Of a DNA stretch of 64,000 nucleotides, positions 2,666-58,643 are shown in pieces; within the stretch, counting starts at the first letter, position 1, and each line of letters opens with the position of its first letter. Origin of the DNA: Minisyncoccia bacterium (lineage in GTDB: Bacteria; Patescibacteriota; Minisyncoccia; Phycocordibacterales; UBA9973); contig JBAQNN010000002.1 of NCBI GenBank assembly GCA_049303835.1, positions 9,248-73,247 on the forward strand, given 5' to 3'. The position numbers and the translations under genes are program-made. The notes under the pieces were generated by a model. The model saw nothing but the letters and a program-made list of their open reading frames with translations. It ran no database searches and was not told the origin of the DNA.

Positions 2666-3433
2666 TTATAACACATATTTACCTATCCTGGTTCTCTTGA
2701 TGGAGAAAGCCAGAGCGGGCATTCCAACCATATTTCCAAGAGCATTTGCTATACCCCTCACATAAGTTCCACTACTGCATTTGATGTCAAATTTCGCTAT
2801 TGGAAAGACTTTCTGTCCTTTGTTTGAAACACGTAAAGTTTCTCTCCAAATTTCCAAAATTTCTTTTTGTCTAAAATCTCCTTTTACTTTTTTTATCCTT
2901 TTTTCTATGTTTTTAAATAACTTTTTATTATTTATCTCTATTATTTTATCTAATTTAAGTTTTTTAATAAATATTTTTCTCTCTGGAATTTCCACTTCTT
3001 CTCCTCTCCTCGCATATACAAACAAAGGCCTTCCTTTTACCGTTTTGGAAGAATAGATGGGATATTTTTGAATTATTTCCCCTAGAAAATTTTTTAGATT
3101 TTCTTTTATTTTTTTCTTTAAATCTCTTTTATTTAATTCTACTAATTCTCTACTAACAACCTTACCCAAAATATCAAAAGTATCTGTACTAAAACCAAAA
3201 AGAACTTGAAATTCATATTCTTTCTCTAACGTTAGATATTTTTCTTTATTTTTTGTTTCTTCACCTGCAAGTATCAGCAAAAGACCACTTGCCATCGGAT
3301 CTAGCCTACCGGCGTAAGTCATTTTTATATTTTTATATTCCGGATACTTTTTAGTTTTTTTCAGACGAAAATTTTCTAAAGCCTCAAGCGGAGTTTCCCC
3401 CTCTTTTTTGTTTAGTAAAATCACTTTCTTCAT
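2666..3433 (-). CDS. truB: tRNA pseudouridine(55) synthase TruB
   Basis: Motif AGRLDPMASGLLLILAGEETK. Start placed at MKKVILLNKKEGE (ATG at 3431-3433); the longer ORF would overlap the adjacent tRNA. Confidence 0.85.
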   Translation of the reverse strand: MKKVILLNKKEGETPLEALENFRLKKTKKYPEYKNIKMTYAGRLDPMASGLLLILAGEETKNKEKYLTLEKEYEFQVLFGFSTDTFDILGKVVSRELVELNKRDLKKKIKENLKNFLGEIIQKYPIYSSKTVKGRPLFVYARRGEEVEIPERKIFIKKLKLDKIIEINNKKLFKNIEKRIKKVKGDFRQKEILEIWRETLRVSNKGQKVFPIAKFDIKCSSGTYVRGIANALGNMVGMPALAFSIKRTRIGKYVL

Positions 3434-3678: not shown

Positions 3679-6313
<2,635 letters not shown>

Positions 6314-37649: not shown

Positions 37650-40418
37650 TTACTCCATCGTCTTGTATCTTCCCATGATTTCCGCCTCTACTTCCGCACG
37701 ATCGCGGCCGTATTTTACATAAGAAAGTTCTTTTAGAGAATCTACAATATCCGGATTCCCCTTCTCGGGCGCAAGGGTCTTTAAGTTAAAAGGTTTAGTA
37801 GGTTGACCATTAACAAGCATATTTACATACGCATTGTAATTATCCAGTTTGGTTATATCTTGGGCGCTAAAAATTGGTTTAAATTTCGGCTCCAAAAATG
37901 TAGCATCTTCAGTGCCGACTCGGAAAACAGCCATAGAGCCCACGTTGCCGAAAACCGCATTTTTAATATTCTCTTCAAGTTGGGTAATGTACTGGTGCGC
38001 AATGTTGAGTGAGAGTCTGTATTTTCTAGCTTCGGATAAAATAGAAGCGATAGAATCAGTAGTGACATTTTGGAACTCATCTATGTAAAGATAGAAATCA
38101 TTCATTGGCTTGCCGAACATATCTACGCGAGAAAGCGCAGCCATCTGAATTTTCCCTACCAACACCAGTCCGATTAAGTTCGCATTTATGTCACCGAGCC
38201 TGCCTTTGGAAAGGTTGACCAGCAGAATTTTCTTCTCATCCATAATCTTCCTAAAGTTGAAAACGGAATTTTGCTGTAACACCACCGGACGCATGATGTC
38301 GTTTGAGATGAAATTATCAAACTTGGATGAAATATAAGGCACGAAGTTAGCCAAGGATTGGTCCCCTGTCGTCTGCTCGACGGAAACCCAGAATTGCTTG
38401 ATAATTGGATTCTTGCACCTGGCAAGTTTCAAATCACGAAACTCCTTGTCCGCCAGGACGCGGGTAATTTCAAGTAAGGTTGAGCCTGACTCTGGGTCTT
38501 CCATCACTAGGAAGGCGCTGTTGCGGAAATACTGTTCAAACATCGCCCCACCTCCCACCTTCATATCAAAAAGTTTGTTGAAAATTCCCATCAACTCATT
38601 CACTACAAAAGTCTTCTGTTCAGGATATTTCGGATCATACTCAAGCATATTGAGCCCCATAGGTCGCGCCGTGTAAGCGGGGTCAAAATAAATCACATCA
38701 TCAATACGCTCTTTGGGAATTCGCGAGAGAATAGTCTGGATATCGGTACCGTGCGGATCAATATAACAGCATCCATCTCCATTCTTGATATCTTGAGTTA
38801 TCATATTGAGCATAATGTTTGTTTTTCCCGTACCAGTCTGCCCCACTACATAGAAATGCCTCATGCGGTCTTCACGCGCCAGGTGAATCTCCGTATCTCG
38901 GCCTCGGTAACTATTGACCCCCAAAACAATACCTTCCTGCCCCATTTCAATCGGAGCCGGAGCGATACCCGCCCTGGCCTCTTTCAGTTGTGGTTGGCTG
39001 CCTATGCCTATCGGAAAATGAAAAACTGAGGCAAGCTCTTTTAAGTTCATGGGCAATGTTTTATCGGGAGAAAAAGTACGATAAGAAAAATCATGGAAAA
39101 GTTTTTTTAAATCACTTCCACTTAATTGCTCAAAAATTAAAGAATTGCTCGCCGCTTCAGAAAATTGATTAAAAGATGATTCTATCTCCCTTAATACTGC
39201 TTCGGCACGTTCTTTGTTTTCCCCCGAAGCGATAATGCGGATATTCGCTTTCATGATAGTGCTCTTTATCTTACTGCCTATTTTTTCCACTGCCCCCTCG
39301 TCTACTGCTCGTCTGCCTTTCATGTATTTTTCTTTATTTTCTTCTTCCTTTTTCTCCTTGTGCCCGAACAAAAGATCTTTCCCTACTTTCAAAAAAGCTT
39401 TGTTAAATTTATAGAAATTATCATCTGCATGTTTGACCGAAGTGCCACTTTTTACATCATCTAAAATTTTGTGAAATTCATTTATAAACTTATCACCGGT
39501 AGGGGCTATCACTATTTGAATCGCCGCTCCTTCGCCGGAAGTCTTTAATTTGGAGAATACATTCAATATAGGGTTCATCGGATCGTGCTCAATATTTTCA
39601 TAAGTTTTTATCGGCATCACAGCGCGCTCGGTGAAAGAAGCATATGCTCCTACTGAACCTCCATTTTCATTGAAAATATTGTAATCATCCGTTACCTCCC
39701 GAATTTTTGCATTATGGTAAAAAGCTAAAATCTGTTTCTCAAAAAGCGAGATATGTTTATTCGGTATGGCCGCATACACAACAACTTCATCACTTTTATT
39801 TTGAAGCGCTACCTCCAAGGTAAAATAATTTTCTTTTTCATTATTCTTGCCGATAGAGATGGATTGCATTCCTGCGTAAAATTGCTCCATCGCGCCAATG
39901 AATTCTTTAAATCCTTTTGATTTATCTGCTTCGTCTTCGGGGGGAGGGAGAGTAATTTCAAAAAGAGTCATTTTGAGAGCTTTATAAACTGGCGAATCCT
40001 CTCTGAAATCAAATGCCACCTGTCCATTTTTTAGATATTGAATAAGAATGCGATGAAAATCATCATCAATGTGTGGATTGCCCATTGCCCCCACTACAGA
40101 AATTGCATTCCGAATTCCCTTCGTGATAACTATACCCAAAAGTTCTTCCATCACTGCATCATGAGATTCAGGACGAAGAGCTAAGATGATACCTTCAGTT
40201 TCTTTTTTATTTAAAACGTTATCTTTGTGTACCAATTTTTCAGTCGGTATATTTTTATATTCACTTATCACCTCTCGTGTTGCATCTTCGGTCACATGTT
40301 CTATGTGCCCCAGATCTTTTAATTCTTCTTCTCTTTTGGCGACATGGGCACGCAAATAATCTAGCTCCTCTTCCGGAGTCTGGAACTTTGGCATTTCTTT
40401 AAAGAAATTCTTTTCCAT
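37650..40418 (-). CDS. Large P-loop ATPase of the FtsK/HerA/VirB4-TraD superfamily with a ~480-aa N-terminal region of unknown function
   Basis: Walker A VVGQTGTGKTN followed by the HerA/VirB4-like DPHG motif (CCYIDPHGTD), Walker B YLYIDEFQN, and LNIAHQ. Confidence 0.55.
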   Translation of the reverse strand: MEKNFFKEMPKFQTPEEELDYLRAHVAKREEELKDLGHIEHVTEDATREVISEYKNIPTEKLVHKDNVLNKKETEGIILALRPESHDAVMEELLGIVITKGIRNAISVVGAMGNPHIDDDFHRILIQYLKNGQVAFDFREDSPVYKALKMTLFEITLPPPEDEADKSKGFKEFIGAMEQFYAGMQSISIGKNNEKENYFTLEVALQNKSDEVVVYAAIPNKHISLFEKQILAFYHNAKIREVTDDYNIFNENGGSVGAYASFTERAVMPIKTYENIEHDPMNPILNVFSKLKTSGEGAAIQIVIAPTGDKFINEFHKILDDVKSGTSVKHADDNFYKFNKAFLKVGKDLLFGHKEKKEEENKEKYMKGRRAVDEGAVEKIGSKIKSTIMKANIRIIASGENKERAEAVLREIESSFNQFSEAASNSLIFEQLSGSDLKKLFHDFSYRTFSPDKTLPMNLKELASVFHFPIGIGSQPQLKEARAGIAPAPIEMGQEGIVLGVNSYRGRDTEIHLAREDRMRHFYVVGQTGTGKTNIMLNMITQDIKNGDGCCYIDPHGTDIQTILSRIPKERIDDVIYFDPAYTARPMGLNMLEYDPKYPEQKTFVVNELMGIFNKLFDMKVGGGAMFEQYFRNSAFLVMEDPESGSTLLEITRVLADKEFRDLKLARCKNPIIKQFWVSVEQTTGDQSLANFVPYISSKFDNFISNDIMRPVVLQQNSVFNFRKIMDEKKILLVNLSKGRLGDINANLIGLVLVGKIQMAALSRVDMFGKPMNDFYLYIDEFQNVTTDSIASILSEARKYRLSLNIAHQYITQLEENIKNAVFGNVGSMAVFRVGTEDATFLEPKFKPIFSAQDITKLDNYNAYVNMLVNGQPTKPFNLKTLAPEKGNPDIVDSLKELSYVKYGRDRAEVEAEIMGRYKTME

Positions 40419-40532
40419 TTATTTAATTATACACCACCCCAGCCCCTCCTCCAAAAGAAATAGAGGAAAACTTGCACCACACCTCACCCCTGCCCCTCCT
40501 CCATAACTAAATTATAGCGAGGGGTAAATGCG

Positions 40533-40555
40533 CGCTAGGCAAGACCTAATACAAA
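40533..40555. repeat. Degenerate third copy of the REP-like palindrome (GCGCTAGG-caaga-CCTAATAC) plus an upstream CCCCTCCTCCA direct repeat
   Basis: Similarity to the elements flanking the transposase gene at 41480 and 42182. Confidence 0.4.
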
Positions 40556-40629
40556 CCTTTCCACTAAACTGTCAAACATTGGATATCCGAATACAACAAT
40601 CTTCTACAGTTACGATATAATCAATTCTA

Positions 40630-41055
40630 TTGTATAATTGGTATATGAAAAATAAAATTTATCTTGCTATTTTTATTGTGTGTGGTTTATTGGCTGCATA
40701 TCTTGTATTTAAAACATTTATAAGTAAAGAAATGTTTGCATTTGCCAATATGCTTTTTGCAATACCGATAGGCGCGATAAGCTTAATCTTTTTCTTTCTC
40801 TTTGTTTACGGAAAAATTTATAATAATCCTGAAAAATTCAACAAAAAAAATCCAATACATGCTACAATAAAATTATCTCCCAATGCCATCCGTGGAATTG
40901 CTCTAGTGTTGGTATTTTTATTTTTAATAATAAACAATTTATCTTTACCTAGCGGTTATATACCATTTCTCAGCGGATTATTTTTAACAATAGAAATGTT
41001 TTCTCTACCACTTGCTTTTATTTTGTTTATTGTAAGTATGTTCGAAAAAAATTAA
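40630..41055 (+). CDS. Hypothetical polytopic membrane protein
   Basis: 141 aa, four hydrophobic helices. Confidence 0.35.
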   Translation: MYNWYMKNKIYLAIFIVCGLLAAYLVFKTFISKEMFAFANMLFAIPIGAISLIFFFLFVYGKIYNNPEKFNKKNPIHATIKLSPNAIRGIALVLVFLFLIINNLSLPSGYIPFLSGLFLTIEMFSLPLAFILFIVSMFEKN

Positions 41056-41095
41056 CTATTAGTAGCAACAACCGTCCTTGCTACTTAAAAAATGA

Positions 41096-41374
41096 TTATA
41101 TGCCAAATTTTCTCCGGAGGATAGCATCTTCTTGCGCCAACTCTTCTTTTGATTTCTGTATTCCGTGTTCTATCCTAAATTTTTCTGCTGCATTTTTTAC
41201 TTTTTCGTATTCTTGCCGTGCAATTTCTCTTTTCTGTGTTTCTGATCCATCCTGCATCTGTTTTATCAGCTCGTCTATTGAAAGCCCGCCTGTTCCTAGT
41301 TCATCTTCACTCTTTTTTTTAGGCTCTACCCCTTTTCTTTTGTCTATAAAATCCCAATTTGTTTTTTCTGTCAT
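41096..41374 (-). CDS. Small charged hypothetical protein
   Basis: 92-aa ORF, coiled-coil-like K/E-rich. Confidence 0.3.
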   Translation of the reverse strand: MTEKTNWDFIDKRKGVEPKKKSEDELGTGGLSIDELIKQMQDGSETQKREIARQEYEKVKNAAEKFRIEHGIQKSKEELAQEDAILRRKFGI

Positions 41375-41479
41375 ACAATGATTTATGGGGAAGTAGAGAA
41401 TCTCACTACCCTATTTAATTACGTAATTAATTATGTACCTAATTATACACCCCCTCAGTCATCTTCCAAAAGTATTGCT

Positions 41480-41502
41480 ATGTGCTAGGTCTTGCCTAGC
41501 AC
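41480..41502. repeat. REP-like palindrome GTGCTAGG-tcttg-CCTAGCAC on the left flank of the transposase
   Basis: Perfect 8-bp stem. An inverted copy sits at 42182-42204. Confidence 0.6.
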
Positions 41503-42182
41503 AACTCATTTTTATAACTTATCCATTCTAAAATCTCCTTTTTAAAATCTTTCTCCAAGGGAAAGTACTCAGGATAAACTTCACTGTCAAGAATTGAATT
41601 CTGTTTTCTTTTTGTGTCTAAATAATCAAGATAGCTCGAGTATTTATAGTCATCTAGATATTTTAAGACTTCATTTTTATTTTTTATTCCCTTTTCTTTC
41701 CAATCTTTTTGTATTAATTTAACAGGATTTAAGTGAATATAAGAAAATATATATTTTAAATATCTATCAGTATCTAAATGTTTCGATTTAAATTTACCCT
41801 CAAAAAGCCCTCCTGCTCTCTTGTATTTTTTGTTGTAATACATCACATATGCTGTACACAACTTCTGCATAAATTTACTTACACCATTTTTTTCTTTGTG
41901 TGTTATTAAAATATGAAAATGATTTGGCATTAAACAGTAAGCTCCAATATTCACTATCTGACTTCCCCTTTCCCAGAGATATGGATCTTCTTCACTCCTT
42001 TTAAGAATAAAATTTCTAAAATTGTTTTCAGAGTTACAGGTGTAAAGCAAAGTAATAAAGTGCCAATAATCTTGGGCATCGTGAAATATTTTTTGTTTAC
42101 TATTCCCACGATTGTATAGATGATAATATTCACCCTCAGCAAAAGAGGTTTTTCTGATAGACATAAATAAATTATACCACAT
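41496..42182 (-). mobile_element. tnpA: IS200/IS605-family Y1 (HUH) transposase, REP-associated tyrosine transposase (RAYT)-like
   Basis: HuH motif CLMPNHFHILI and a downstream catalytic Tyr region (YIHLNPVK), 228 aa. Flanked by inverted palindromes. Confidence 0.7.
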
Positions 42183-42204
42183 GTGCTAGGCAAGACCTAG
42201 CACA
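42182..42204. repeat. REP-like palindrome GTGCTAGG-caaga-CCTAGCAC on the right flank of the transposase (inverted relative to 41480)
   Basis: Perfect 8-bp stem with the loop reverse-complemented. Confidence 0.6.
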
Positions 42205-42218
42205 TTATACAACAAAAA

Positions 42219-42992
42219 TTAAATTTTAGTTAAAATTTCTGGCTCCCCTTCTGTTATCAGAATAGTATGTTCAAAATGAGCGCTATTTTTGCGGTCTGCC
42301 GTGCGAAAAGTCCAATCGTCGTCATCTATGGTCACGTGCTTTGTGCCGAGGTTTAACATCGGCTCCAGAGCGATGATCATCCCCGACACGAGCTTCTCTC
42401 CTTTACCCTTTTTCCCAAAATTTGGAATAAATGGATCTTCGTGAATCGCTTTACCCACACCGTGCCCAGCGAGAACTTCTACGATGCCGTATTTTCTTTC
42501 CTGCGCATGGACATAGCTTTCTATCGCATATCCTATATCTCCCACCGTGTTCCCCGCTATGGCTGCATCAATACCTACTTGAAGTGCCCGTTCGGTAACT
42601 TGCAGAAGCTTCAAGTTTTCCGGGCTGACTTTACCCACAGGCACAGTGATAGCCATATCGGTGAAAAGCCCTTTGTGTTTGGTGCCCAAATCAATAGACA
42701 CTATATCCCCCTCTTTCAAAATTTTATTTTTATTTGGAATACCATGCACCACTTCATCATTTACAGAGACACATAAAGAAGCGGGAAATGGCGAGCTTGC
42801 TCCTTCGGGACGATAATTGAAAAATGCTGGAATGTCCCCAAGCTCACGAATAAATTGCTCTGCATAAGTATCTAAATCTTTTGTAGATACACCGGGTGCG
42901 ACTTTGTCCGCTACTTTATAAAGTACTGTTGCCAGATTCTTACAACCTGCACGAATTATTTCTATTTCTTCTTTTGTTTTGATAATGACCAT
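42219..42992 (-). CDS. map: Methionine aminopeptidase, type I
   Basis: Metal ligands in SIDLGTKHKGLFTDMAITVPVG, HGVGKAIHE and ALEPM. 257 aa. Confidence 0.9.
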   Translation of the reverse strand: MVIIKTKEEIEIIRAGCKNLATVLYKVADKVAPGVSTKDLDTYAEQFIRELGDIPAFFNYRPEGASSPFPASLCVSVNDEVVHGIPNKNKILKEGDIVSIDLGTKHKGLFTDMAITVPVGKVSPENLKLLQVTERALQVGIDAAIAGNTVGDIGYAIESYVHAQERKYGIVEVLAGHGVGKAIHEDPFIPNFGKKGKGEKLVSGMIIALEPMLNLGTKHVTIDDDDWTFRTADRKNSAHFEHTILITEGEPEILTKI

Positions 42993-42996
42993 ATCA

Positions 42997-43677
42997 TTAT
43001 GAAATTACTGTTCCAATAAACTCCTCTCCGTTTAAACACTTTGCCAAATTATCAATCGGTTTTCCATTCATGATTATTACCTTCATCTCTTTTTTCTCTG
43101 CCGTTTCGGACGCGATAGGATCAAAAGGAGTACTCAACCCGGGATTCCATTCTTTTGGAATAAGGGCGCGGTAATCCGCCCAAGAAATTTGCTCTATTTT
43201 TTTTGCATCTAAATTAATTTTTGGATCTCTATCATACACATAATCAGTATTGGATAAATTAATTATTTTTTTTATTCCAAGAGCTTCTGCCCCTTTGACT
43301 GCATCCCAATCCGTACTGCGCCCAGGGCGAAAGGCTGAGCCGATGACAATTGGTTTTTCGGAAACAACTCCGAGAGATAAATCTGCGACAACTTCGTCAT
43401 GAGCATGTTCCCCAAAGATAACTCTCAGCAGTTCAGCATTTAATTTTAGGGATGCGATGCCGATCCAGTCCAAATCTTCATTTGAAGGATGGCCGATTTC
43501 TTTAGCGACATTTTGATATTTTCTACATATTTTCCCTCCTCCGGTAATAATTATAAATTTTTTACCTTGCTCAACCTGAGAAAGTATTAATTTTTTGAAA
43601 TCCTGTAAGAAACTGATGTCTATCTCCCCTGGAACGATGAGCGAACCACCAAGTGAAATGATTATCGTTTCTTCCAT
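42997..43677 (-). CDS. pyrH: Uridylate kinase, archaeal-type (amino-acid kinase family)
   Basis: IIISLGGSLIVPGE..IIITGGGKICRKY matches the archaeal UMP kinase pattern. 226 aa. Confidence 0.6.
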   Translation of the reverse strand: MEETIIISLGGSLIVPGEIDISFLQDFKKLILSQVEQGKKFIIITGGGKICRKYQNVAKEIGHPSNEDLDWIGIASLKLNAELLRVIFGEHAHDEVVADLSLGVVSEKPIVIGSAFRPGRSTDWDAVKGAEALGIKKIINLSNTDYVYDRDPKINLDAKKIEQISWADYRALIPKEWNPGLSTPFDPIASETAEKKEMKVIIMNGKPIDNLAKCLNGEEFIGTVIS

Positions 43678-44288: not shown

Positions 44289-44855
44289 ATGAAAAAAGAA
44301 ATTATAACCATCTGCGGAGGTCTCGGAAGTGGAAAGTCCAGCACTGCCAAGAAAGTAGCGGAAATTTTAGGATTCCAACACTTCTCTTCAGGTGATTTTT
44401 TTAGGCAAGTTGGACTGGAGCTTGGTTTGTCTATTAATGAGATGAACAAAAAAGCTGAAGTAGATCCAAAAATAGACAAAACAATAGACCAAAAACTGCG
44501 AGACATGAGAAATAAAGAGAAAGTAGTTATTGATTCACGCACGGCATATCACTGGATACCGGAATCGTTTAAGATATATTTGGACCTATCACAAGAAATT
44601 GCCAAAGACAGAATCTTAAACAGTATAAAGGAAAATAAATTGAGGATGGAAAGTGAACAAATTTCTTCCGCCGAAGAAGCGTATGAAAAAATGCAGGAGC
44701 GTTTTTCAAGTGAACAGAAAAGATATTGGGATCTGTATAAAATAAATAACACTGATAAAAATAATTTTGATTTGGTTATAGACACAAACAAAAACAACCT
44801 GGAGCAGGTTGTTGATATTATCGTCACTGAATATAAAAAGTGGATAAAAAACTAA
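44289..44855 (+). CDS. cmk: Cytidylate kinase-like P-loop NMP kinase (archaeal type)
   Basis: ITICGGLGSGKSSTAKKVAEILGFQHFSSGDFFRQ. 188 aa. Confidence 0.55.
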   Translation: MKKEIITICGGLGSGKSSTAKKVAEILGFQHFSSGDFFRQVGLELGLSINEMNKKAEVDPKIDKTIDQKLRDMRNKEKVVIDSRTAYHWIPESFKIYLDLSQEIAKDRILNSIKENKLRMESEQISSAEEAYEKMQERFSSEQKRYWDLYKINNTDKNNFDLVIDTNKNNLEQVVDIIVTEYKKWIKN

Positions 44856-58358: not shown

Positions 58359-58592
58359 ATTTTTGTTACTAATAGTTAAAACTTAACGTACGAGAACCAG
58401 TCGCTAAGGCCTAACTACTAATGTAAATTAACTAATAATTTAAAAAACAATATAAGCAAACCTTGTATTGCCTTCGCTCGTGAATCTTGTAAAACATAAA
58501 GTTTTCCACGATATCACTCGCTAGCCAATATAAAAACTGCAGAAAGTGCAGTTGCTAAGATAATAGCAGAATTAGAAATAAAGTCAATAATT

Positions 58593-58622
58593 AAAAAGAC
58601 TAGGGCTCGCCTAGTCTTTTTA
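58593..58622 (-). terminator. Rho-independent terminator after fusA
   Basis: AAAAAGACTAGG-GCTCG-CCTAGTCTTTTTA. Confidence 0.5.
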
Positions 58623-58643
58623 ATAAATTTTGTTTGTTAATTT

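Follow-up and report, generated by a model that had tools for sequence, protein, structure and literature searches.

A probable REPtron-like system of atypical kind, formed by a Y1 (HUH/Tyr) protein gene and a short hairpin, in a Minisyncoccia genome

We analyzed a stretch of 64,000 nucleotides (nt) from a Minisyncoccia bacterium (assembly GCA_049303835.1, contig JBAQNN010000002.1, positions 9,248 to 73,247 of the forward strand), which is called the window below and is numbered from its first letter. On its minus strand lies a gene for a protein of the Y1 (HUH/Tyr) type (41496..42164; 222 aa plus stop codon), bracketed by two copies of one short palindrome. We consider it probable that this gene and its palindrome form a REPtron-like system, that is, a REP-associated tyrosine transposase (RAYT) with its cognate repetitive extragenic palindromes (REPs), of an atypical kind and probably domesticated. 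This reading is carried by the class and fold of the protein, the association of the gene with the hairpin, the dispersal of the hairpin in related genomes, the covariation in its stem, and the finding that Y1 subfamilies have hairpins of their own. The original prediction, made from the letters of the window, had proposed a candidate RAYT/REP system in a genome resembling those of the candidate phyla radiation (CPR), and the protein class and the hairpin dispersal in relatives support that proposal. In full-text searches of the literature, no paper describing a RAYT/REP system in CPR/Patescibacteria was found, the sole co-mention being an archaeal locus.

The predicted HUH protein with the motif LMPNHFHIL is present: the open reading frame (ORF) at 41496..42182 on the minus strand matches Pfam Y1_Tnp with 36.5 bits against a threshold of 23. 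An alignment with 32 homologues places the true start at MSIRK (42164), which corrects the length from the 228 aa given originally to 222 aa; the ATG of the longer version sits inside the upstream hairpin. In the 33 aligned sequences, N81, H82, F83 and H84 (the HUH motif) and Y142 are invariant, and P147 is nearly so. Y142, within S-Y-I-H-L-N-P, is the candidate catalytic tyrosine and follows the HUH motif by 58–60 residues, and the typical spacing in the RAYT family is 58–67 residues (PMC6006769). The protein also has a conserved helical C-terminal extension of ~70 residues (~150–222), which classical RAYTs do not have. The sole NCBIfam match, even at E<=10, was the model for REP-associated tyrosine transposases (NF047646, REP_Tyr_transpos; E 2e-12), with a score of 47 bits that falls under the equivalog cut-off of 80 bits, and the IS200/IS605 models of NCBIfam did not match at the same threshold. 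Assignment by hidden Markov model thus agreed with the predicted RAYT class in that only the RAYT model matched, and fell short of it in score. An AlphaFold2 model of the protein (pLDDT 82, pTM 0.83) found its best Foldseek match in the PDB in 4er8_A, the E. coli RAYT with a REP hairpin (E 5.3e-5, target TM 0.67), followed about two orders weaker by the IS608, ISDra2 and IS200 TnpA structures (E 4e-3 to 1e-2). The link to a RAYT structure comes from this fold comparison only; the sequence profile gave none. More than 7,800 homologues were found; the best 120 are 64–87% identical to the window protein, and all taxon-labelled sequences among these 120 belong to Nomurabacteria, Zambryskibacteria or other Paceibacteria/Patescibacteria.

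The palindrome GTGCTAGG-N5-CCTAGCAC is perfect at 41482-41502 (GTGCTAGGTCTTGCCTAGCAC; plus-strand loop TCTTG) and at 42183-42203 (GTGCTAGGCAAGACCTAGCAC; loop CAAGA), and the two copies together make a 24-nt inverted repeat with 100% complementarity. Because the stem is self-complementary, the inversion resides only in the 5-nt loop and the flanks. As single-stranded DNA (ssDNA), both copies fold with −9.5 to −10.5 kcal/mol (z −4.3 to −6.3). The upstream hairpin (42181..42205, core 42183-42203) has a 10-bp stem and the loop TCTTG on the Y1 sense strand; it lies 14 nt past the map stop codon and directly before a -10-like box. The downstream hairpin (41481..41503, core 41482-41502) has a 9-bp stem and the loop CAAGA on the sense strand, and the TAG stop codon of Y1 (41496-41498) is part of the CTAG of one hairpin arm. 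The extended -10-like box TGGTATAAT (42171..42179, minus strand) stands 6 nt upstream of the ATG, and a TATAAT-like box is present between hairpin and ATG in most homologous loci; the layout of hairpin, TGGTATAAT, 6 nt and ATG suggests that the Y1 transcript is leaderless.

A third copy of the palindrome, GCGCTAGGCAAGACCTAATAC at 40532-40552, carries 3 mismatches, as its earlier description as degenerate implied. It is a relic with a degraded right arm that no longer folds; its loop is inverted relative to that at 41482-41502, it bounds a variable segment on the side of a DUF8128 gene, and it is absent from the equivalent position of a related stretch, L004 (designations of this form are ours for stretches from related genomes and metagenomes). 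The window thus holds three matches to the palindrome against 0.07 expected from shuffles. Beyond these three, a search of the 64 kb with up to 6 mismatches gave nothing above chance, and no other repeated hairpin family was found in the window. At 58590-58625, an intergenic, bidirectional terminator-like hairpin (AAAAAGACTAGG-gctcg-CCTAGTCTTTTT) has the inner CTAGG/CCTAG stem of the Y1 hairpin but differs from it in loop and outer stem; the resemblance may reflect divergence within the family or mere coincidence.

The association of gene and hairpin was counted in 24 non-redundant Y1 loci from genomes and metagenomes. An upstream hairpin was present in all 24, at 15–34 nt before the ATG in 23 and at 150 nt in one, and had the orientation seen in the window in 20. 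A downstream hairpin was present in 23 of the 24 loci, where it overlapped the stop codon or lay no more than 33 nt from it. The pair was inverted in 14 loci and direct in 9, indicating that inversion is common and non-obligatory; the palindromes had been described as inverted, which holds for the two perfect copies in the window and not for all relatives. The Nomurabacteria GWB1_40_6 ortholog, which is 87% identical, has identical hairpins on both sides and the same neighborhood as the window, namely cmk-like, adk, AA_kinase, map, Y1, a variable slot, DUF8128, DUF559 and ndk. At L004 3219-3367, an insertion of ~150 nt rich in GC palindromes (CTCGCGACTTGTCGCGAG; CCCCGTCGGCTTGCCGCGGGG) separates the upstream hairpin from the Y1 start; it may be another small inserted element.

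The gene occupies a syntenic position in the window, in L004/L030 and in L032. Between the window and L004, Y1 is 87% identical, compared with 88% for map, 90% for adk and 90% for DUF8128; between the window and L032, the corresponding values are 89% for Y1, 82% for map, 64% for adk and 79% for DUF8128. Y1 is therefore as conserved as its housekeeping neighbors, a pattern that suggests vertical descent with purifying selection and not an active insertion sequence. Diverged Y1 paralogs share one genome in two instances (P0001 with P0035, and L012 with L030); the proteins of L012 and L030, from the same assembly, are ~72% and 87% identical to the window protein. In L047 there is no Y1 gene; one hairpin and other genes lie between map and DUF8128, and the locus differs from the others by a presence/absence polymorphism at the hairpin.

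We scanned 185,579 GTDB species-representative genomes for the exact 19-nt core TGCTAGGCAAGACCTAGCA of the hairpin. The core was found in 64 genome stretches, compared with ~4 expected by chance for a 19-mer, and nearly all of them were from Nomurabacteria/Paceibacteria. Several genomes carried 3–8 perfect cores on different contigs (8 in MFTQ01, 8 in CAZXCD01, 6 in CALRAL01 and 4 in JAPLXR01). A scan of metagenomes found the core in at least 120 stretches, so that the palindrome, for which a wider search had been proposed, is not private to the Y1 locus in this lineage. In assemblies of Nomurabacteria/Paceibacteria and in metagenome contigs, more than 200 sites carry the identical core, although the Y1 proteins of the Paceibacteria assemblies that share it are only 59–89% identical. 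Overall, ~40% of the cores flank a Y1 gene; another ~40%, often resembling terminators, lie between genes, and ~20% are found in frame within housekeeping genes. Among the 142 perfect cores in the metagenome matches listed, 52 flank a Y1 gene, 63 are intergenic or on a contig too short to classify, and 27 are inside long ORFs. Most cores in the genome stretches and in the listed metagenome stretches are solitary and far from any Y1 gene.

The stem of the hairpin covaries. In 80 copies, the three outer pairs were complementary in 90%, 78% and 76% of cases (37%, 28% and 54% in shuffles), and all four Watson-Crick pair types occurred. This covariation indicates that the functional unit is a 10-bp stem, made of 7 fixed pairs (TGCTAGG/CCTAGCA) and 3 covarying pairs, with a fixed 5-nt loop CAAGA. 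Since the loop is unpaired and nevertheless fixed, recognition by a protein is suggested, rather than stem stability alone. Many intergenic copies are located at the 3' ends of genes, where A-runs and T-runs lengthen them in the manner of bidirectional terminators. Their loops point in the same direction as the neighboring genes in ~12 cases and in the opposite direction in ~10, and with no bias seen, a rule by which loop orientation follows gene direction (at the level of the replication strand or of RNA) was rejected. A directly adjacent inverted pair of cores was found once (L131 2060-2097), as a possible REPIN-like doublet.

Beside many copies (L021, L033, L034, L037, L055, L059 and L108), we observed short tandem duplications of a hairpin arm and a few flanking bases, such as CCTAGCACAAT-CCTAGCACAAT and GCGTTAGGTCTTT-GCGTTAGGTCTTG; the duplication in L108 lies in a gene and yields ARQDLATVCVRQDL. 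Such duplications might have been left by cleavage and rejoining, or by slippage. Hairpins of the forms CCCTCCCCTT-N3-AAGGGGAGGG and CCCTCTCCTT-N3/4-AAGGAGAGGG are found repeatedly in many related genomes, as a possible second family of dispersed palindromes.

In the same set of genomes, Y1 paralogs that share only 39–43% identity with the window protein have other palindromes on their flanks (ACTGAGAGG-ccttg-CCTCTCAGT, CAGATAGAGG-tttaa-CCTCTATCTG and CAGATAGGGG-cttag-CCCCTATCTG) and contain an extra copy of their own palindrome inside the coding sequence. REPs are specific to RAYT subclasses and are found inside the RAYT genes of subclass 2.4 (PMC6006769). The paralog hairpins accord with the rule that each RAYT has its own REP (PMC6006769). 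In this second Y1 subfamily (39–43% identical), three copies of its own palindrome, with 10–11-bp stems, lie upstream of, inside and downstream of the coding sequence, at L039 1104-1819, L044 1-723, L062 3584-4353 and L034 3216-3933.

About one in five copies of the window hairpin lie in frame within bona fide housekeeping genes. Host genes confirmed by Pfam encode PurD, GatB, RsmI, LigA, RsmA, Fpg, a GlcD-like oxidase, DapF, MnmA and TruB, and the listed metagenome stretches add a second LigA site and others. The copies are read as ARQDLA, with CAAGA on the sense strand, in 42 of 44 cases and as ARSCLA in 2, and both ORFs with ARSCLA are possibly not real genes. Because intergenic copies show no orientation bias, the bias of reading frame has its simpler explanation in tolerance of the peptide. 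Proteins with the core differ in length from orthologs without it by 0 to +2 residues, and the "empty" orthologs of ligA carry a variant or relic; a model of plain +21-nt insertion for the in-gene copies was therefore dropped. At the ligA site, two genomes have a perfect core (VARQDLAS), and a third has the variant hairpin CGCAAGG-CAAGG-CCTTGCG (SARQGLAE) with two compensatory stem changes. In the window, ligA contains a tentative candidate relic (SAKTGLVE; 4048..4065, minus strand) that matches the core at 11 of 18 bases, and the truB-like gene contains another (VSRELVE; 3137..3157, minus strand), also tentative, at a site that has an intact core in L025 and L108. At several orthologous in-gene sites, the core is identical at 19 of 19 positions with flanks 62–86% identical; this conservation is supportive only, owing to ascertainment, since an exact core was the criterion by which the loci had been retrieved. 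In-frame GTAG/CGTC REPs have been described in genes, notably those of replication and repair, including ligase and truB (PMC3733652), and in-gene hairpin copies therefore have a precedent in intragenic REPs (PMC3733652, PMC6006769).

In several respects, the system resembles a REPtron. This arrangement was reportedly described by Nunvar (2010) and Ton-Hoang (2012), and classical REPs are often species-specific. REPtrons, known from E. coli (yafM), Pseudomonas and Stenotrophomonas, consist of a RAYT (TnpA_REP) gene with cognate REPs on its flanks (Quentin 2018, PMC6006769). The window system likewise has a single HUH/Y1 protein, the predicted fold of which most resembles the E. coli RAYT, and a gene that is bracketed by one palindrome, which in relatives is found elsewhere in the genome as well; each Y1 subfamily has its own palindrome, and the gene is syntenic, slowly evolving and, diverged paralogs apart, apparently not multi-copy. 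As with GTAG/CGTC REPs, palindromes lie in frame in genes that include those for ligase and TruB (PMC3733652). There are also differences. Canonical REPs are defined by a GT[AG]G or CGTC foot (PMC3733652, PMC6006769), which the hairpin does not have, although atypical untagged REPs exist in subclass 2.6 and class 3 (PMC6006769). The palindrome is perfect and very short, with a conserved 7-bp stem and three variable pairs; its 19-nt core, unlike classical REPs, is identical across many Paceibacteria assemblies. There are ~2–8 perfect copies per genome, in a genome-reduced lineage, and unlike REPINs they are almost all singletons rather than inverted doublets. The protein differs from RAYTs by its conserved C-terminal region of ~70 residues and by not reaching the NCBIfam cut-off, and the host, from a CPR/Patescibacteria lineage, differs from those of known REPtrons.

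Other systems share single features with it. The TnpA proteins of IS200/IS605 elements (IS608, ISDra2, IS200), whose derivatives without TnpA are the palindrome-associated transposable elements (PATEs), have HUH/Y1 chemistry and recognize ssDNA hairpins, traits that would extend to the window protein by homology, and the elements, like the window system, have a unit of ~0.7 kb with hairpins near both ends; hairpin-bounded passenger cassettes, as in PATEs, are also possible. Unlike IS200/IS605 elements, the window system matches none of their models, has a weaker structural match to them (E 4e-3 to 1e-2, against 5e-5 for the RAYT), carries identical palindromes at its two ends, is apparently not multi-copy and keeps its chromosomal position. 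Rickettsia palindromic elements (RPEs), reportedly described by Ogata (2000), and intragenic REPs (Di Nocera 2013, PMC3733652) lie in frame in functional housekeeping genes, as do the present hairpins, all of them apparently tolerated in surface loops. In contrast to both, the coded insert of the window hairpin comprises only 6–8 residues (ARQDLA), is nearly always read in one of two open frames, and hardly alters protein length relative to orthologs without the hairpin. The resemblance to attC arrays of integrons lies in folded single-stranded palindromes that separate small cassettes, several of them toxin-antitoxin modules, in at least one array (L037); no IntI tyrosine recombinase or attI site was identified, the candidate enzyme is an HUH nuclease, and the signs of cassette exchange are indirect.

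In the mechanism that we propose, the Y1 protein would bind the folded hairpin on ssDNA, for example at the replication fork, and would cleave and rejoin DNA beside it by means of Y142 and an HUH-bound metal. Such reactions could spread, homogenize or maintain the hairpin copies and sometimes move gene cassettes bounded by hairpins. The upstream hairpin might in addition terminate or insulate transcription and allow the Y1 protein to regulate its own gene.

Several observations weigh against a RAYT/REP system. Besides the score below the NF047646 cut-off, the family profile matched no transposase when it was run against PDB sequences, and hairpin binding and cleavage by the Y1 protein are predicted from homology. 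No conserved GT[AG]G or CGTC tag was found at the hairpin foot in the 80 oriented copies. The only intact hairpins in the 64-kb window are the two flanking Y1, so that dispersal is demonstrated in relatives and not in the source genome, and the assembly CAZADR01 (L032), the relative whose Y1 is most similar, has perfect copies at the Y1 gene only. Copy number is low, at 2–8 perfect copies per metagenome-assembled genome, which is about an order of magnitude below that of classical REPs. Because intergenic copies are often terminator-like, their persistence may in part be independent of the Y1 protein, and some terminator role of the hairpins is likely. Finally, simple cut-and-paste of a 21-nt unit is no explanation for in-gene copies that change protein length by 0 to +2 residues.

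Three other explanations were weighed against the RAYT/REP reading. The 722-bp unit is IS200-like in having a single Y1 ORF and subterminal hairpins, and L047, with its map, single hairpin and DUF8128 and no Y1, resembles an empty or excised site; the hairpins could accordingly be the ends of an autonomous IS200-type mobile unit of ~720 bp that landed after map and broke the ribosomal-protein/secY operon. We regard this as very unlikely. No IS200/IS605 model matched the protein at E<=10, the two ends share one perfect palindrome instead of having distinct imperfect left and right hairpins, and the gene is syntenic in at least three genomes and conserved like its housekeeping neighbors. No near-identical copies were seen, the L012/L030 paralogs being only ~72% and 87% identical to the window protein, and most hairpins are solitary. 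Another possibility is that the hairpins are primarily host elements, such as terminators, insulators, RNA stabilizers or sites of some other factor, with a spread and conservation independent of Y1 catalysis, and that the Y1 gene would only sit between them or use them as operators. Many solitary copies do lie at convergent or tandem gene 3' ends with A/T-runs like bidirectional terminators, a consensus scan scored 41481-41503 as terminator-like on the plus strand, and the upstream copy falls exactly between the map stop codon and the Y1 -10 box. Independent terminators, however, would not agree in every base of a 19-nt core, loop included, in many Paceibacteria assemblies, and ~20% of the copies are in coding regions, where termination would be harmful. 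The different hairpins flanking different Y1 subfamilies also speak against an origin independent of Y1, and the lack of orientation bias in intergenic copies (~12 versus 10) against a loop-specific role in RNA; we consider this explanation unlikely.

It is also improbable, in our view, that the hairpins are primarily recombination sites of cassettes, comparable to attC sites or PATE ends, at which Y1 would excise and integrate single-stranded cassettes, notably toxin-antitoxin modules, at hot spots marked by hairpins, one of which would be the slot that separates Y1 from DUF8128. The evidence for this comes from several loci. In L037, an array of hairpins in a single orientation separates toxin-antitoxin modules (hairpin, RelB/YafQ, hairpin, MazE/MazF, hairpin), and a module of hairpin, promoter and mazE occurs in three genomic contexts in three genomes. 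Homology of the window with L004, L032 and L047 breaks at the Y1 downstream hairpin, and the slot that follows is variable: it contains genes for a 53-aa, a 298-aa and a MazE-like protein in L004, a 209-aa gene in L032, and a 167-aa gene with HicB/HicA, and no Y1, in L047. Toxin-antitoxin components made up 6 of 51 small ORFs beside solitary hairpins and at least 1 of 150 distant controls (with 25 of the 58 control families listed), an enrichment that is suggestive only and rests on few, partly related cases. Most solitary hairpins, moreover, lie beside ordinary housekeeping genes, neither circular or excised intermediates nor near-identical cassettes at different sites were seen, and the hairpin on the far side of the slot is decayed in the window. 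A bolder proposal, which we think unlikely, is that the Paceibacteria HUH/Y1 enzyme and its 25-nt hairpin form a host-integrated ssDNA recombination system, in which the hairpins are kept at fixed positions as cassette junctions and are not a decaying selfish repeat. If this were true, hairpins would be maintained at the nucleotide level, including those in the essential genes ligA, gatB, purD, fpg and mnmA, toxin-antitoxin modules and the Y1 gene itself would be exchanged at hairpins, and an analogue of the integron driven by an HUH enzyme would operate in bacteria with very small genomes.

On the RAYT/REP reading, the system is of interest as a test case. Work on RAYT/REP systems has been confined almost wholly to Proteobacteria; in a genome-reduced CPR lineage, useless DNA is expected to be purged. 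Here, Y1 is conserved like its housekeeping neighbors: its proteins are 63–89% identical among the genome assemblies sampled, and its homologues in the protein database number in the thousands; the hairpin is short enough for synthesis and identical across many Paceibacteria assemblies; and copies persist in essential genes, in one case with compensatory stem changes. The combination of a small genome, a conserved gene, a short shared hairpin and in-gene copies makes domestication of a RAYT, as opposed to its toleration, testable. Thousands of genes annotated as "transposase" in Patescibacteria probably do not indicate active insertion sequences, and where ARQDLA occurs in a housekeeping protein, it signals an embedded DNA element.

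Along the minus strand of the window, the order is map (42219-42992), hairpin, Y1 gene, hairpin, two small ORFs and a DUF8128/VirD4-like gene (37650-40418), and the wider gene order is secY, cmk-like (on the opposite strand), adk, AA_kinase, map and Y1. An amino-acid-kinase-family gene (42997-43677, minus strand) splits adk from map, and a cytidylate-kinase-like gene on the opposite strand (44289-44855, plus strand) splits secY from adk; L002-L004 share both arrangements. The original prediction held that the operon ends at the element, where infA to rplQ would be expected. The gene order is as it described, and queries with E. coli InfA, RpsM, RpsK, RpsD and RplQ had no match anywhere in the 64 kb. 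The arrangement of map, Y1, variable segment and DUF8128 is also present in L004 and L032, however, and because the order is conserved in the lineage, the end of the operon after map reflects no recent disruption.

The variable segment (40553..41480), between the downstream hairpin and the decayed third copy, contains the two small hypothetical genes that had been predicted to follow the element, namely a 92-aa ORF (41096-41374, minus strand) and a membrane-like 141-aa ORF (40630-41055, plus strand); neither matched a known family. The Y1 protein and the two small ORFs had no match in PADLOC or PHROGs, and an Rfam search over 40300-42400 gave nothing meaningful. The CCCCTCCTCCA direct repeats, which had been grouped with the third copy, are present (40435-40456 and 40485-40506, 91% identical), but they were not accepted as a component of the element, because their place is in the conserved region upstream of DUF8128 (cf. 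L004 5620-5650) and outside the hairpin family. On the minus strand, this repeat region (40435-40506) reads TTGGAG, 17 nt, TATAAT, 7 nt and ATG, a leaderless-like layout. The DUF8128 gene (37650-40418, minus strand) adjoins the variable slot in all four genomes compared and encodes a 922-aa protein with a VirD4/TraG/HerA-like ATPase core (Pfam TraG-D_C and TrwB_AAD_bind), which was matched by the PADLOC models mad8 (E 6e-12) and HerA. Before the 92-aa ORF, at 41400-41429 on the minus strand, we observed a leader of ~45 nt, TAATTACGTAATTAAATAGGGTAGTGAGAT(T)TCTCTACTTCC, with the palindrome TAATTACGTAATTA. The same leader occurs at L004 5265-5300, there before an unrelated MazE-like gene, and it looks like a portable promoter/operator module.

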